Below, in pieces: positions 3,325-47,496 of a stretch of 47,496 bases of DNA. Positions within the stretch are counted from its first letter, which is position 1. Each line of letters begins with the position of its first letter. The DNA lies in the NCBI GenBank assembly GCA_024274695.1, contig JAJSAI010000031.1:1-47496 (forward strand). Reading direction: 5' to 3'. Source of the stretch: an archaeon (GTDB lineage: Archaea; B1Sed10-29; JAJSAI01). The position numbers were made by a program, and so were the translations under genes. Below the pieces are notes generated by a model. The model was given only the letters and a program-made list of their open reading frames with translations, was not told where the DNA came from and made no database searches.

Positions 3325-5243
3325 TTTTCAGACCTCTTCCCGTAGACTTCTTCCAGGACGCTCACAGGGTCCTTGTAGTATCTTGCGATGATCTCTCCAA
3401 CATCCTTGTAGTACCTTATTCCCTTTTCCTTCATCCAGTTGAGTATGTCTCTTCTTCTCCTTATTTCTTCCCAAACGCTCTTTTCAGGAAGGCCCTTCTC
3501 TTCTATTATCCTGTTCACGATGTAGCTCCTGTCAGAGGAGAACTCGTAGTAGTCCTGGGACGGGACCCACTTGAAAAGGGTGTTGGTTATCAGGTTCCCT
3601 GTCCTGAAGTCCACTCCGACTATTTCTATCAGTTCTTTTATTCTTCTGACGTCCACGCCCTTGATGTGCGCGTGCTGTAGGATTATGACGATGTCAAGGT
3701 GCTGGAGAAGTCCTGGCGACAGGTTTATTGGGGGTGTGATGAGCCTGTTCACCACTGCCTCGAATGACTCCGCGTGCAAGGTGGCCATTCCAGGGTGTCC
3801 CGTCGCCATTCCCTGGAACAAGACGTACGCTTCTTTTCCCCTGACCTCTCCGACTATTATCTCGTCGGGCCTTTCTCTCAAGGCCGCTCTGAGCAGGTCG
3901 AACATGCTCACTTCCCCTCTCTCGCTCGGCCCGTATCCTGGTCTTGCGATCTTGGCCACCCAGTGCTCGTGAGGGAGCCTGAGCTCTGGAGTGTCTTCTA
4001 TGCTCACGATCTTGGCTTCAGGGTGCAGGAAAAGGCAGAGCGCGTTCAGCAGGCTTGTTTTTCCGGTAGCAGTTCCCCCGGCCACTAGTATGGAGTTCCT
4101 GAACTCTATGGCCAGCCACAGGTACGCTGCAATTGTTGCGGGAAGCGTCCCGTAGTTCATGAGGTCTATTACAGTGAGGGGATCCTTGGTGAATTTCCTG
4201 ATGGTGAACGTCGAGCCTCTTATGGCAATATCCTTCCCTGCTGAGAACGTTGCCTGCACTCTGCTCCCGTCGGGCAGGGCGCCGTTCATCAGGGGTTCTG
4301 CGACGGAAATGTGCTTCCCGCACCTCTGCGCTAGCTTGATTATGAAAGAATTCAGTTCCTCGGGGTCCGTGAACACGATGTTTGTTTTCAGGGAACCATA
4401 CTTTCTGTGGAAGACGTATATCGGGATGTTCACGCCGTCACAGGATATGTCTTCTATGTTCTCGTCCTGCATCAAGGGCTCTATCCTGCCGAGCCCGAGA
4501 AAATCCCTGTAAACGTAGTAGAGTATCTTGTTGTACGTTGCTTCCGTCATTTTTATGTCATAGTCCGCGATTATCTGATCAAGCTTTTCTTTCAAATAGT
4601 CCTTAACCCTCCCCGGCTCTTTCACTTCCATCAGGTTTATGTCCAGAAGGTCTATTATGAGCTCCTTAATCCTAGCAAGCTGTTTCTCCTCCTCCTGGGT
4701 CAAGGGAGGCTCTAGAACGTTGTACGTAAGACTGTGCTCCTTCTTGTTCCATTTTATGACCGCGTACGCGTACGGTTCTATTAGCGGGTATCTCACGTCA
4801 ATGGTTTTCAGTTCAGGAGGAGTCCACTGGGAAGGGATTATTCTCTTTTCTTCCTCGGGCACCTTGTGTTCTATGAACGCGAGGCCCCTCACCTTTTCTT
4901 CCTTCTTTCCCTTTGCCTCCCTTTTTATTTCCTCAGTGACCTTCGGGAACTCTATAACGACAGGGGCAGATGGCTTCTTCTTTTCCTCGGCTGGGGTCAT
5001 GCTCTCTTCAGGGATCTTCTCCTTGATTTCCTCCACTCTCTTTTCTTCAATCTCTTCTCCCGTTATCTTCTTCAGTTCTGAAAGGTAGTCCTTTTCCTCT
5101 TCCTTAGCCTCTTTTATCCACTCTCCGTACAAGGGCTCTTCTTCCTCTGTTTTGGCCAGCTTGACCCATTCCCCTACTTTCTCCTCTTCGGATCCCGGCC
5201 ACTCCTTCAACAGTTCCCTAAGCTTTTTCTTAGACAGGGGCAC
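3321..5243 (-). CDS. Type IV pilus assembly ATPase (FlaI/VirB11 family)
   Basis: Walker A GGTATGKT, SIEDTPEL, LRERPDEIIVGEVRG, TGHPGMATLHA. Confidence 0.95.
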   Translation of the reverse strand: MPLSKKKLRELLKEWPGSEEEKVGEWVKLAKTEEEEPLYGEWIKEAKEEEKDYLSELKKITGEEIEEKRVEEIKEKIPEESMTPAEEKKKPSAPVVIEFPKVTEEIKREAKGKKEEKVRGLAFIEHKVPEEEKRIIPSQWTPPELKTIDVRYPLIEPYAYAVIKWNKKEHSLTYNVLEPPLTQEEEKQLARIKELIIDLLDINLMEVKEPGRVKDYLKEKLDQIIADYDIKMTEATYNKILYYVYRDFLGLGRIEPLMQDENIEDISCDGVNIPIYVFHRKYGSLKTNIVFTDPEELNSFIIKLAQRCGKHISVAEPLMNGALPDGSRVQATFSAGKDIAIRGSTFTIRKFTKDPLTVIDLMNYGTLPATIAAYLWLAIEFRNSILVAGGTATGKTSLLNALCLFLHPEAKIVSIEDTPELRLPHEHWVAKIARPGYGPSERGEVSMFDLLRAALRERPDEIIVGEVRGKEAYVLFQGMATGHPGMATLHAESFEAVVNRLITPPINLSPGLLQHLDIVIILQHAHIKGVDVRRIKELIEIVGVDFRTGNLITNTLFKWVPSQDYYEFSSDRSYIVNRIIEEKGLPEKSVWEEIRRRRDILNWMKEKGIRYYKDVGEIIARYYKDPVSVLEEVYGKRSEK

Positions 5244-36772: not shown

Positions 36773-36891
36773 GGGCCCATAGCTCAGCCAGGTTAGAGCG
36801 CCGGTCTTATATGGCCCGCTCTAGCACAGGTTTTGCTGGCGGCGCTTGAGAGAACCGGAGGTCCTTGGTTCGAATCCGAGTGGGCCCACCA
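36773..36891 (+). tRNA. tRNA-Ile(UAU) with 41-nt intron (36812-36852) at 37/38; CCA encoded
   Basis: GGGCCCA/TGGGCCC acceptor, A73, CCGGT/ACCGG anticodon stem, loop CT-TAT-A/A, TTCGAAT T-loop, BHB at the exon-intron junctions. Confidence 0.88.
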
Positions 36892-43843: not shown

Positions 43844-43851
43844 GCGGTCCC

Positions 43852-44139
43852 ATGAAAGAAGAGAAAGTGATCAGGGTGCACGCTTTCTTCTCAGGCCTTG
43901 TACAGGGAGTTAACTTCAGGTACTACACTGCCATTAAGGCAAGAGAACTGGGAGTCAGGGGCTGGGTGAAAAACCTGTCTGACGGCAGGGTCGAGGCAGT
44001 GTTCGAGGGGCCTGAAGAAAGCGTGAAGCAAGTGCTCGAGTACTGCAGGCGCGGTCATCCGATCGCAAGAGTCGAGTCAGTAGAATTGAAGGAAGAAACG
44101 CCCCTGGGAGAAGAAGATTTCAGGATAGTCTATCACTAG
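43852..44139 (+). CDS. acyP: Acylphosphatase
   Basis: GLVQGVNFR, GWVKNLSDGRVE. Confidence 0.93.
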   Translation: MKEEKVIRVHAFFSGLVQGVNFRYYTAIKARELGVRGWVKNLSDGRVEAVFEGPEESVKQVLEYCRRGHPIARVESVELKEETPLGEEDFRIVYH

Positions 44140-44978
44140 CCTTTTAGCAGGGAGGACACGTACCTTTCCGTGCCTTTTATCACGAGCCCCTTGTTTCCAA
44201 GAGTTGTTGGAATGCTGGGAACCGAAAACGTTTTTTCCTTACGTATTCTAGTCTGAAGGTATTCGGAAAGCCTGCGGATCGCGAGATCCAGTCTCTCTTC
44301 CAGCGTTTCAGGAACATATTCCTGTACTTCCTCCTCTAGCACGTGTTCTATTATGTGCTTTTCAGGGAGCTGTATCCAGGCTTTTTTCACTTTTTCGGGT
44401 TTTAGCACGTGACCGAACACGTTAGCAGAAGGCCTGTTCACGAGTTTTCCTCCCATGACCACGACCAACGGTTTTTTGAGAGTTCCCAGGTTGTACAATC
44501 GGAAAAAAGAGTCCTTCCAGGCGAACGCGTCAAATCCCCAGCCCCTGAACAAAGGAACCCTTCTCTCGTTTATGAGCTCTAGCTTGAACAGGATCTCGTG
44601 GTACTCCTTGTTGCTCACGCTCTTTTTCTCAGACTCCTGCATTTTCGGGAGCGTGTTGATTTCCATGCTCTTTCTCTGGGAGAAATCTTTTCTGATGCCA
44701 AGCAGTTCACTCACGGTGTCCCTGAACAGTCTCTTCTTTTTCTCGTCAGGAACTCTTTTGGGAAGGAGGGCCAGCAGAGAATACCCCCTGGGAATGTTCG
44801 TTCCAAAATTTTTTCCCAGCCCCGCGATCTCCAGCAGGGACTCCGGGGTCACATTCTCTATGAACAGTTGAGAGGATACAGGGAACTGGTCGGCAAACCC
44901 CTCGGATTCTAAAAAAAGCGCGACCATGTCCTCGGCTATTACTCTCGAGGCCTGTTCAAAGAACTTCAACCCTACCAT
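44136..44978 (-). CDS. Hypothetical protein
   Basis: 280-aa ORF overlapping the upstream PEP-mobile gene; no motif recognised. Confidence 0.65.
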   Translation of the reverse strand: MVGLKFFEQASRVIAEDMVALFLESEGFADQFPVSSQLFIENVTPESLLEIAGLGKNFGTNIPRGYSLLALLPKRVPDEKKKRLFRDTVSELLGIRKDFSQRKSMEINTLPKMQESEKKSVSNKEYHEILFKLELINERRVPLFRGWGFDAFAWKDSFFRLYNLGTLKKPLVVVMGGKLVNRPSANVFGHVLKPEKVKKAWIQLPEKHIIEHVLEEEVQEYVPETLEERLDLAIRRLSEYLQTRIRKEKTFSVPSIPTTLGNKGLVIKGTERYVSSLLKG

Positions 44979-45279
44979 CCTCTGACACTCTCACGTCTTT
45001 CCCCAGCAGGCGAGAGGCTTCTTCCGGGCTTATCCTGACGCAGGGTATTCCAAGTTCTCTCAGGTAAATCCCAATGTGCGACAGGAAACCTCCTTCTGTT
45101 ATTATCACTCCCTTGCCTTTGCTCAATGCGAGAAGCTCCTTCAAGCTACTCTTTTTTGGCTCGAGCAGTACTATTCTACCGTTTAAGTCCTCCTCGTCCC
45201 GGAACAGTACTACTTTACCTGACGCTATTCCAGGAGAAATCACTTTTCCTTGAAGGATCTTCTTTGTCGTATGAATCAC
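44956..45279 (-). CDS. Stand-alone PEP-utilising enzyme mobile (phosphohistidine swivel) domain
   Basis: SPGIASGKV and TEGGFLSHIGIYLRELGIPCV, matching the GGxTSHAAIxARExGIP signature. Confidence 0.85.
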   Translation of the reverse strand: MIHTTKKILQGKVISPGIASGKVVLFRDEEDLNGRIVLLEPKKSSLKELLALSKGKGVIITEGGFLSHIGIYLRELGIPCVRISPEEASRLLGKDVRVSEDGRVEVL

Positions 45280-46419
45280 CCTCTTTGAGGATGTTTAATG
45301 CTAACTTTTTATATTTTACCACCTGAGGCCATACCCATTTTATGAGTTGACTTTCATACTTGCAGTTGGGTGGATGCGCCATTATATTGCCTGAAACATA
45401 TGCTAGAAATGGGCAGCTTCCTCCTTGACAAAGATTTTTTGAGAACAGAAAGCAGGATGAACATTCTTTCTTTAGTTTGCTAACTCGATTGTTCAGCAAA
45501 GATATTACAGGGGCTTCAAAGGCTTTTTCTAAAGTATTTATTTTAGAGAGATCAGCTAATTTAAAGAAATTATTATCTAGACTTGATGTCCTGTTACATA
45601 TGCTGATGCTACCGTCCCAGTCTACTGAAAGGTAATGTTTGGTTAACATGCATCCTGGGCTGAAGTGGCAGTAAGGAAGAGGTCTGTTGAAAATGATTGA
45701 TTGAACTATTCTATAAAATGTAGGTATGTTTATGGGGTCAGTGTCGTTACTCCAACATTTAAATAGATTTTTCATAAACTCAATATATTCTTGATGAGAA
45801 ACATGTATCTCGTCAAAATTTTTTACGGCGTTTCCTGAATAAACAAGAGGACTAGGTTGTAATCCAATTCCTTCTTCTTTAAAGAAATAATATATATCTT
45901 CTGCCCGGTTAACGTGATATCTTGTAATAACAATAATTGCTCCGATTGTTTTTTGTGTTTTTTAAGCATTCTTAAATTTTTTAAAACTTTTGTATGAGTT
46001 CCCTTGCCTTCATAATCTACTCTTAAAAGATCATGAATTTCTTTTGGTCCATCTAAACTAGAAGAAACATATGTGTGATATTTAGAAAAAAGAGAAACCC
46101 ATTTTTTGTTAAGTAATGTTGCATTTGTTTGAATTTTTACTTTTAAAAACAAATTTTGATTGTTTAGTGCGTTAAAAATTTCTTTTAATGCTTTTTTATA
46201 TTTTTCTAAACCCCAAAGAAGAGGTTCTCCTCCATGAAAAAGAATTTCTAAAGTGGATATTTTATTTTTGATTATATATTCTTTTGTCATTTCAATAAGT
46301 TTTTGAAAAAGTTCGAATGACATTTCTTTTTTATCTTAGTGAGGAACATAACAATATCGGCAATTAAGATTGCAAGCATTTCTTACGGGTCGTATCATTA
46401 ATGATAAAGTTTTAGACAT
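45215..46419 (-). pseudogene. Radical SAM/SPASM peptide maturase-like gene with two lesions
   Basis: MSKTLSLMIRPVRNACNLNCRYCYVPH* (CxxxCxxC); in-frame TAA at 46336-46338; FHGGEPLL, QTNATL, SLDGP; frameshift at the T6 run 45949-45954; SPASM cysteines in 45215-45775. About 401 aa if repaired. Confidence 0.85.
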
Positions 46420-46428
46420 ATTATTCAC

Positions 46429-46539
46429 TTAATATCTATCAACATAATCTACTCCTGCCCAATTATCATCATAATGATCAATATATTCATCAATATAATT
46501 ATCATCATATTCATCTTCATAAATATTATTAAATTTCAT
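46429..46539 (-). CDS. Putative RiPP precursor peptide, 36 aa, with YxD repeats
   Basis: Hand translation MKFNNIYEDEYDDNYIDEYIDHYDDNWAGVDYVDRY*; ends 9 nt before the rSAM ATG; TATA-like TTTTATTATAAA about 25-35 nt upstream. Confidence 0.75.
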   Translation of the reverse strand: MKFNNIYEDEYDDNYIDEYIDHYDDNWAGVDYVDRY

Positions 46540-46670
46540 AATTTTTTAAAAAGAAAAAATACTTTTTATAATAAAAGGCGGACAAGAAACATTTTTTGAA
46601 TCCATTTTTATACCCCCTTTTTAAATTTTTGATTATATCTTTTATTTTTTTAAAATAAAAAATTTTCTGC

Positions 46671-46889
46671 CGGGCCCAGTGGGATCCGAAAGGGAAGACA
46701 CCTGTGGTTTCATACCAGGAATTTCCAATTCCGGGATGATTCGGAAAGGCCTTTGCCTTTCCGATACTTCCCTTTACTCTCTTCCCTTCTTCCAAGGGAA
46801 AGGGGTAATAGGGGAATACCAAAAGGCGAAGCCTTTTGGATTATCTAAGAACCCAGGGGGCTCTTGGTATAAAACCGTAGGTTGTCCCT
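46671..46889. repeat. tRNA-linked hairpin repeat element, copy A (tRNA 3'-end fragment plus ~200-bp inverted-repeat-bounded body)
   Basis: 46671-46690 reads TTCGGATCCCACTGGGCCCG on minus; body 46691-46889 has imperfect terminal inverted repeats and internal hairpins. Confidence 0.8.
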
Positions 46890-46894
46890 GTCAG

Positions 46895-46968
46895 CGGGCC
46901 CACCGGGATTCGAACCCGGGTCACAAGCTCCGGAGGCTCGCATTCTGTCCAGGCTAAACTATGGGCCC
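46895..46968 (-). tRNA. tRNA-Arg(CCG)
   Basis: GGGCCCA/TGGGCCC-G, anticodon arm CGAGC-CTCCGGA-GCTTG, T arm CCGGG-TTCGAAT-CCCGG. Confidence 0.93.
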
Positions 46969-47018
46969 CTCCTGCATCACGGTTAGGATGAGGCGGGAGA
47001 GTGCTCAGCATTTTTGAT

Positions 47019-47106
47019 CTCGAGGCCAGCGCGTTGACCACTCCGCCATCCCGGCGCTAACGCCGGGAGTGGGATTCGAACCCACGAGGGCAAAAGCCCA
47101 CTGGCT
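47019..47106 (-). tRNA. Circularly permuted tRNA-Ser(CGA): 3' half 47106-47061, 5-nt linker, 5' half 47055-47019
   Basis: Halves assemble into a full cloverleaf with long variable arm and G73; break at 37/38 lies within a strict BHB; 11-bp leader/trailer stem. Confidence 0.9.
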
Positions 47107-47166
47107 CGCTCGTCTGACCAGGCTTTTCAGAAAAGCACTCTCCCAAGAAAAGTTTTGGTCCCGGCG

Positions 47167-47180
47167 TTTTTATTACTTTT
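47167..47180 (-). promoter_or_regulatory. Putative BRE/TATA for the permuted tRNA-Ser / tRNA-Arg transcript
   Basis: AAAAGTAATAAAAA about 23-36 nt upstream of the leader stem start at 47144. Confidence 0.5.
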
Positions 47181-47202: not shown

Positions 47203-47495
47203 TGGCGGGCCCAGTGGGATCCGAAAGGGAAGACACCTGCGGTTTCTCCCTCTACCCTCTTCCCTTCTTTAGGTAAAGGGAGGCTCATAAGGGGATACCA
47301 AAAGGGCGTTGCCCTTTTGGATCATCCAGGAACCTTTGGTTCCTGGTATGAAACCGTAGGTGCCCCTTATTCGGGTGAGGAGGGTAAAGAAAAATTTAGA
47401 AGGGAAAGGGGTAATAGGGGAATACCAAAAGGCGAAGCCTTTTGGATTATCCAAGAACCCAGGGGGTTCTTGGTATAAAACCGTAGGTTGTCCCT
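47203..47495. repeat. tRNA-linked hairpin repeat element, copy B
   Basis: 34 nt identical to the left end of copy A (plus CCA on minus); 47400-47495 matches 46794-46889 at 94/96; extra internal variant unit at about 47291-47367. Confidence 0.82.
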
Positions 47496-47496
47496 A

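Follow-up and report, generated by a model that had tools for sequence, protein, structure and literature searches.

A candidate circularly permuted tRNA-Ser(CGA) gene with an anticodon-loop junction in a small-genome vent archaeon

Permuted transfer RNA (tRNA) genes of an archaeon have been described for Thermofilum pendens. According to PMC3218864, they encode the iMet and Tyr tRNAs, have their junction at 59/60, encode the CCA and contain an extra canonical intron. In the accessible parts of papers from 2018, 2021 and 2025, Chan et al. (T. pendens, 2011) is the sole citation for archaeal permuted tRNAs. Outside the Archaea, Table 1 of Soma 2014 (PMC3978253) lists permuted Ser(CGA) genes with a junction at 37/38 for Ostreococcus lucimarinus, O. 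tauri, Micromonas pusilla, Micromonas sp. RCC299 and the Bigelowiella natans nucleomorph. Here we analyze a contig of 47,496 nucleotides (nt) from an archaeal genome (JAJSAI010000031.1, referred to as the window). A locus close to its end, on the minus strand, has the sequence properties of a real tRNA-Ser(CGA) gene that is circularly permuted, with its type II junction at 37/38, and functional, and we consider this assignment very probable.

The window is contig C26 of the source genome (G000), an assembly of 825 kb in 32 contigs with 91% completeness and 0.25% contamination. All coordinates are positions in the window and refer to the minus strand for the permuted gene unless stated otherwise. 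The only other genome of the genus (G001, 95% complete) is labelled Candidatus Micrarchaeota in its public record, and the public sequencing runs with related contigs are labelled hydrothermal vent metagenomes.

The order of leader, 3' half, linker, 5' half and trailer along the minus strand (Table 1) agrees base for base with the order proposed in a first-pass annotation of this DNA. The 3' half begins with A38 and comprises the 3' strand of the anticodon stem, a 14-nt variable arm, the T arm, the 3' strand of the acceptor stem and the discriminator base. The 5' half contributes the 5' strand of the acceptor stem, the D arm, the 5' strand of the anticodon stem and the loop nucleotides C-U-C-G-A-G. 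The two coordinate-sliced halves were joined in silico by script at 37/38. As the annotation had anticipated, the joined halves give a serine cloverleaf, which ARAGORN identified as tRNA-Ser(cga) with 2 of 2 paddings. It consists of an acceptor stem of 7 base pairs (bp), a D stem of 3 bp, an anticodon stem of 5 bp, a long variable arm of 4 bp and a T stem of 5 bp, with the T loop TTCGAAT and a G as the discriminator. The mature Ser(CGA) is 87% identical to the Ser(UGA) and Ser(GGA) tRNAs of G000 and has the acceptor stem, G73 and the long variable arm in common with them.

The position of the TATA-like box would fit a transcription start at the leader clamp. Similar A/T boxes are found ~30–45 nt upstream of many other tRNA genes of G000 (for GlyCCC: CAATAAAAACGC). 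Since the linker is only 5 nt long, there is no room for a second promoter. No T run occurs between the trailer clamp and the following tRNA-Arg(CCG) gene, and the two tRNAs are probably co-transcribed. Directly after the TATA-like box we observed the heptamer GCCGGGA (47159–47165, minus strand), which equals the 5' strand of the Ser acceptor stem and is present in G000 but lacking in G001. Either it is a possible remnant of a lost upstream 5' half, or it occurs there by chance.

Table 1. Features of the permuted tRNA-Ser(CGA) locus and the adjacent tRNA gene
Feature	Positions	Strand	Remarks
Whole precursor, clamp to clamp	47144-46995	minus	order: clamp, leader, 3' half, linker, 5' half, trailer, clamp
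TATA-like box GTAATAAAAAC	47166-47176	minus	22-32 nt upstream of leader clamp; putative promoter
Leader clamp strand GGGAGAGTGCT	47134-47144	minus	perfect 11-bp complement of 47005-46995
Leader spacer	47115-47133	minus	19 nt; contains UGGUC, which can alternatively pair with trailer GAUCA
Leader side of bulge-helix-bulge motif	47107-47114	minus	outer helix GA 47114-47113; central helix CGAG 47112-47109; bulge C-G
3' half	47061-47106	minus	46 nt; tRNA positions 38-73, A38 to discriminator G; CCA not encoded
Linker TTAGC	47056-47060	minus	5 nt; between discriminator G73 and G1
5' half	47019-47055	minus	37 nt; tRNA positions 1-37; anticodon CGA 47022-47020; G37 = 47019
Trailer	47006-47018	minus	A (completes bulge A36-G37-A); outer helix UC 47017-47016; 10-nt spacer
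Trailer clamp strand AGCACTCTCCC	46995-47005	minus	
tRNA-Arg(CCG)	46894-46968	minus	ARAGORN and Rfam; 26 nt downstream of trailer clamp

The locus resembles the T. pendens genes (PMC3218864) in several respects: both halves are on one strand with the 3' half placed upstream, a bulge-helix-bulge (BHB) motif is found at the junction, standard tRNA finders give low scores or miss the gene, and the gene is the sole copy found for its anticodon. The T. pendens halves follow a single promoter, and the putative promoter here would likewise serve both halves. The intervening sequence measures 7 nt and 1 nt in T. pendens versus 5–6 nt here. The junction, however, is located in the T loop (59/60) in T. 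pendens and in the anticodon loop (37/38) here. A type IV (59/60) permuted tRNA was ruled out for our locus, as its 3' half contains an uninterrupted T arm. CCA is encoded and a canonical intron is present in T. pendens, whereas the present gene has neither. An 11-bp clamp is located outside the BHB here. Also the organisms are different: T. pendens is a crenarchaeon with a normal genome size, and our locus belongs to a ~0.8-Mb vent archaeon with a sister genome labelled Micrarchaeota.

With the algal and nucleomorph Ser(CGA) genes, as listed in PMC3978253, the locus shares the isoacceptor, the junction and the lack of both an intron and an encoded CCA. The 5-bp intervening sequence of the B. 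natans nucleomorph genes equals the 5-nt linker found here. Those genes are eukaryotic (nuclear or nucleomorph), whereas the present one is archaeal. The description of the gene as belonging to a different lineage and isotype is therefore correct with respect to T. pendens, but the isotype is not new, because permuted Ser(CGA) genes with a junction at 37/38 are already known from green algae.

As at the present locus, split tRNAs have a BHB where their halves meet, and a long helix of complementary leader and trailer brings the ends together. The halves of split genes are located at separate loci or have separate promoters, in contrast to the halves here, which are just 5 nt apart in one precursor; a split (trans-spliced) tRNA gene was ruled out on these grounds. 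Split tRNA genes of Nanoarchaeum equitans and the Desulfurococcales are reported in PMC3218864.

The BHB of the permuted gene is composed of a trailer strand, in which the anticodon stem is followed by C32-U33-C34-G35, the bulge A36-G37-A and UC, and a leader strand with GA, CGAG, the bulge C-G-A38 and the anticodon stem. The leader CGAG pairs with C32-U33-C34-G35, resulting in two 3-nt bulges and an outer helix GA/UC. The helices flanking a BHB require at least 2 bp. The geometry equals that of a canonical pre-tRNA intron at 37/38, where each cut is made after the second bulge nucleotide. The cut sites predicted here are 47107/47106 on the leader side and 47019/47018 on the trailer side.

A stretch of 161 nt yielded a folding z-score of -4.35, and none of 200 shuffled sequences folded as well. 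The predicted perfect 11-bp stem between leader and trailer is present; when the two 60-nt flanks were shuffled, 4 of 5000 trials gave a complement of this length. In a model with 41 pairs, standard pairs occupy 81 of 81 cells across G000 and G001. On the basis of these three results, the arrangement is not a product of chance.

In G001 the permuted order is kept and both halves are 100% identical to those of G000, unlike the functional Ser(UGA), which differs between the two genomes. The column identity from clamp to clamp is 96%, and the adjoining coding DNA is 70–76% identical. Differences are confined to certain parts of the precursor. The linker of G001 has 6 nt (CTTTGT), and the trailer spacer shows a 4-nt deletion and two substitutions. 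In the clamp, the outermost pair is lost and the next is a G-U pair, while the stem is extended inwards by complementary T/A residues. Outside the precursor, the alignment of the two loci is limited to a 13-nt A/T-rich block, AAGTAATAAAAAC, and tRNA-Arg(CCG). The TATA-like box sits within this block and is identical in G001 amid diverged surroundings. This contrast between invariant functional parts and a variable linker, variable spacers and variable flanks makes the case for function. The BHB model leaves the 19-nt leader spacer (47115–47133) without pairs; nevertheless, 18 of its 19 positions are identical in G001 while the linker and the trailer spacer vary. This conservation may be tied to a competing helix between UGGUC and GAUCA (see below).

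The locus is located 350 nt from the contig end, inside a repeat-rich stretch that interrupted the assembly, and a chimeric join or a collapsed repeat could in principle have produced the inverted order of the halves. The same order was found, however, in G001, in a metagenome contig of the Joint Genome Institute (L057, identical to G001 over the locus) and in two Logan contigs from two studies (9031 bp, run X1, and 7936 bp, run X3). The latter span 46891–47143 in the G001 form, and in all of these sequences the linker is bridged by well over 31 letters to either side. The G000 version deviates from them in linker and spacers and is therefore a distinct sequence that has the architecture in common. 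These independent assemblies exclude a misassembly for practical purposes, and we regard an artefact as extremely improbable. A single 151-nt contig from run X2 represents a third variant with 47005 T>C (plus strand), which would turn the innermost A-U pair of the clamp into a G-U pair if the leader is unchanged. At the contig end, the tail of contig C27 (C27:2568-2698) is identical to the minus-strand start of C26 (window 47367–47496), and the two contigs thus join. The resulting gene order is tRNA-Arg(UCU) with an intron, copies of a repeated element, the permuted Ser(CGA) and tRNA-Arg(CCG). In G001 the order of these three tRNA genes is unchanged, but the elements are missing.

Standard tools do not detect the gene in its genomic order, as had been expected. 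ARAGORN reports just the adjacent tRNA-Arg(CCG), and Rfam at gathering thresholds finds, in the window, only this gene and an intron-containing tRNA at 36773–36888. None of the 40 matches of the Rfam tRNA model in the whole of G000 is located at the permuted locus; at a permissive threshold the 5' half reaches 16.1 bits. A match of the tRNA-Sec model to the leader and 3' half (24.8 bits, gathering threshold 47) was rejected, as it is due to a chance pairing of GGGAG in the leader with CTCCC of the acceptor strand. The tRNA at 36773–36888 (plus strand) scores 58.3 bits with Rfam and is read by ARAGORN as Ile(UAU) with a 41-nt intron at 37/38.

The ordinary Ser genes of G000 have the anticodons GCU (C12), UGA (C32:4633-4717) and GGA (C32:40919-41003). 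An ordinary Ser(CGA) gene was found in neither the G000 nor the G001 assembly; for G000 this holds for ARAGORN (31 genes without introns, 29 with) and for the 40 Rfam tRNA matches. A BLAST search of G000 with the locus gave, apart from the locus itself, just Ser paralogues. The anticodon-arm pattern occurs at seven places in G000 (six for the reversed control) and at two in G001, with a tRNA context only at the permuted locus in each genome. One ARAGORN call, 'tRNA-Ser(tga) with intron' at C32:7728-7852, was rejected, because reading by eye identified it as a Thr(UGU) gene with an intron. UCG accounts for 973 of 183,996 codons in 450 long open reading frames (ORFs) of G000, corresponding to 7.9% of the Ser codons. 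These codons are in use, and a UCG-reading tRNA is therefore needed. We also scanned G000 for further permuted tRNAs by combining a T arm, an acceptor 3' strand, a linker of up to 80 nt and a complementary acceptor 5' strand. Among 25 raw matches the C26 locus alone is permuted, with T-loop (59/60) permutations outside the reach of the scan. The other raw matches were rejected as non-tRNA sequence, internal Ser hairpins or adjoining tandem tRNA genes.

The source genome encodes an EndA of the alpha type (C23:7310-7825, 172 amino acids, with both Pfam domains), RtcB, an archaeal RNase P RNA (148.8 bits), RNase Z and an archaeal CCA-adding enzyme. Maturation calls for each of these five activities, given that the gene lacks an encoded CCA and has its acceptor stem closed by the linker, and all five are present. 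A strict BHB at 37/38 should be a substrate for every known type of EndA.

Based on the observed anatomy, the conservation, the reproducible assembly, the absence of a second Ser(CGA) from the assemblies and the five processing functions, we infer the following maturation pathway in all its steps. Transcription would start ~22–32 nt downstream of the TATA-like box, at or just before the leader clamp, and probably continues into tRNA-Arg(CCG). The precursor would fold with the tRNA body around a closed acceptor hairpin, in which the 5-nt linker forms the loop. The BHB would extend the anticodon stem, and the 11-bp clamp of leader and trailer would secure the ends. In the next step EndA is expected to cleave in both 3-nt bulges, after G37 and before A38. 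RtcB would then join G37 to A38, yielding a circular intermediate of 88 nt or, after an earlier cut in the linker, two trans-spliced halves. Removal of the linker would involve RNase P and RNase Z, and the 3' end would be completed by the CCA-adding enzyme. Permuted tRNAs in Cyanidioschyzon merolae, a red alga, reportedly mature via a circular RNA intermediate, as is said to have been shown experimentally by Soma et al. in 2007. The pathway proposed here is alike in BHB cleavage, ligation to a circle and processing of the acceptor end; it is experimental there and deduced here.

The alternative order of events is a variant of this explanation that leads to the same mature tRNA. RNase P and RNase Z would cut the linker first, and the paired halves would subsequently be trans-spliced by EndA and RtcB. 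Until then they would stay together via the acceptor stem, the anticodon stem and the clamp, as in the split tRNAs of Nanoarchaeum. We consider this two-piece route possible, though on the unlikely side. Nothing at this locus opposes it, and circles are documented for C. merolae. The 11-bp clamp resembles the leader/trailer helices of split tRNAs. The circular intermediate of archaeal permuted pre-tRNAs is called unclear in PMC3978253.

Several observations weigh against a functional permuted gene. The BHB, termed canonical and strict in the first-pass annotation, is formally strict and pairs as stated there, but its outer helix has merely 2 bp and it is not part of the minimum free energy fold. 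With ViennaRNA the latter has -74.7 kcal/mol compared to -70.0 kcal/mol for the best fold that retains the BHB, a difference of 4.7 kcal/mol. In the minimum-energy fold, UGGUC of the leader pairs with GAUCA of the trailer, G37 is paired, so that the cleavage site is buried, and the trailer bulge is reduced to 1 nt. Both folds are kept in G001, and the sequences therefore cannot choose between them. Compensatory changes between G000 and G001 are found in 0 of 41 pairs, because only two nearly identical sequences exist; the structural support is thus conservation and not covariation. A tblastn search of G000 with the alpha subunit gave no EndA paralogue below E = 0.5 as a second subunit. No RNA run is listed among the public sequencing runs holding the locus (X1–X3 are DNA contigs). 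Finally, Ser(UGA) might read UCG by wobble, in which case the permuted gene is not essential, and an ordinary Ser(CGA) may reside on unassembled DNA of G000 or G001.

A number of these points would also fit a non-functional relic, in which a tandem duplication or a rearrangement of a Ser gene has left a 3' half beside a 5' half and UCG is read by Ser(UGA) or by an unassembled Ser(CGA). The close relationship to the Ser(UGA) paralogue (87% identity), the 91% and 95% completeness of the assemblies, the missing RNA runs and the absence of covariation are all compatible with such a relic. It would, however, not be expected to have identical halves in two genomes with 70–76% identical adjoining genes, given that not even the functional Ser(UGA) is the same in both. 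Conservation also extends to the BHB, the clamp and the promoter box, next to a variable linker and variable spacers, and a relic would not retain 41 of 41 pairs plus an exactly placed BHB. We therefore judge a relic to be quite improbable. The functional permuted gene proposed in the first-pass annotation is supported by the conservation, by its being the sole copy in the assemblies and by the presence of the enzymes, with its function deduced from these features.

The full arrangement was found by BLAST only in G000 and G001 among 61 genomes. A covariance model of the permuted core (100 columns) scored 125 bits in G000 and 129 bits in G001. In no other genome did the score exceed 43.4 bits (order, 18 searched; phylum, 31 searched). 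The mid-scoring matches that were inspected turned out to be ordinary Ser genes or tandem tRNA genes. The exact junction pattern, which is specific to this acceptor stem and does not reach permuted tRNAs of other kinds, was present in a single record among 185,579 species genomes (G001) and once in a metagenome collection (identical to G001); there were 0 matches in viral contigs. BHB and clamp are conserved in the one other genome of the genus, and the permutation is restricted to this genus among the 31 genomes.

Relatives have ordinary Ser(CGA) genes. Those of G007 (same order) and G021 (same class) lack an intron, and that of G018 (same class) has the ordinary order with a 50-nt intron at 37/38 and a BHB. 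This marks the permutation as the derived state. The Ser(UGA) gene of G012 (same order) also has an intron at 37/38, with a length of 28 nt. This intron starts with ATC and includes AGCCTGG, as in the trailer and leader here, which is suggestive, if weakly, of a common descent. In both introns the BHB geometry at 37/38 is that of the permuted gene, with a normal exon order. The likely origin is a tandem duplication of, or a rearrangement within, a Ser gene with a 37/38 intron. The simplest version would be a tandem duplication of the intron-bearing gene with loss of the outer halves. With either origin the clamp would be a former intron hairpin. Relatives in the order and class retain ordinary Ser(CGA) genes, and the permutation may have arisen independently of the algal ones.

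A repeated element of ~230 nt directly follows tRNA genes with GGGCCC acceptor stems, namely Arg(UCU), Arg(CCG), Lys(UUU) and Lys(CUU). Copies are located at 46661–46893 and 47203–47496 of the window (minus strand) and at C27:2568-2698, C22:26163-26258, C19:11095-11267 and C19:25837-25932. The element has two hairpins, of which the first varies from copy to copy in a compensatory manner, and terminates in a copy of a 3' end of the tRNA-Arg(UCU) type, TTCGGATCCCACTGGGCCCGC. Pieces of it occur within the introns of tRNA-Arg(UCG) (C9) and tRNA-Pro(CGG) (C32), and it interrupts the assembly. It looks like a miniature integrative element targeting tRNA 3' ends. In G000 copies lie on both sides of the permuted gene, and tRNA-fragment copies are found beside it at 47203–47225 and 46668–46690; the G001 locus has no copy of the element. 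The permuted gene itself was ruled out as a tRNA fragment left by an integrative element (att-site copy), because it comprises both halves together with the BHB, the clamp and the promoter box, and these are conserved in G001, where the flanking elements are absent.

Next to tRNA-Arg(CCG), ~3 kb of the window (43845–46890) have no counterpart in G001, where the tRNA abuts the homologue of position 43844. Pfam matches of the ORFs in this region are weak or partial at best (radical SAM, SPASM, PEP-utiliser mobile domain). The G+C content of C26 is 46.8% compared to ~50–55% in most other contigs. The region is possibly an island that was inserted at the tRNA.

Many tRNA genes of G000 contain long introns, some of them in the D loop. 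The 37/38 introns of Thr UGU (C32:7728-7849), Arg UCU (C27:2442-2566), Arg CCU (C12:21449-21582) and His (C32:9409-9530) share a core with GAGCC, a hairpin and then GCCCTCGGGGAAAG, which suggests a single intron family that may have spread among tRNA genes. The tRNA-Ser(GGA) gene of G001 (L047, C8 ~4969-5081) has a ~34-nt insertion in the T loop, and its G000 orthologue (C32:40919-41003) is uninterrupted; intron content therefore varies within the genus. Downstream of tRNA-Ser(GGA) in G000 (C32:41003-41070, L048) we observed a short hairpin insert, GGTAGAGG..AACCCGCTGGAGGTT.CCC, after which the tRNA 3' end is repeated. The same insert is present in G030, a genome of another family of the class (L062, C8:8180-8340), and a related motif is located at 47226–47262 of the window.

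What is new about the locus is the lineage and, for the Archaea, the junction type; the mechanism is not new. In the literature covered, which includes few subscription journals, permuted tRNAs are not reported for Micrarchaeota or DPANN archaea, and an earlier report is possible. With moderate confidence we take the gene to be the first permuted tRNA in the Archaea outside the Crenarchaeota and the first archaeal one with an anticodon-loop junction, a recent permutation in one Micrarchaeota-labelled genus that arose from an intron-bearing Ser gene and converged with those of green algae.

If this is true, the permutation of Ser(CGA) at 37/38 would be a recurrent, perhaps favored, outcome. A possible reason is that it breaks the target of elements that insert into tRNA genes, and such elements flank the locus. 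The intronless, intron-bearing and permuted Ser(CGA) genes of this genus and its relatives form a natural series on how a permutation arises. The ~150-nt precursor and the 172-residue EndA represent a compact substrate/enzyme pair for in vitro work. The gene is also a concrete case of a tRNA that annotation pipelines report as missing from metagenome-assembled genomes, and since standard finders miss permuted tRNAs, these would be under-counted in uncultivated archaea. A second archaeal lineage, remote from the first, with a very small genome and another junction type, would mean that the archaeal splicing machinery supports permutation more broadly than one species had suggested.

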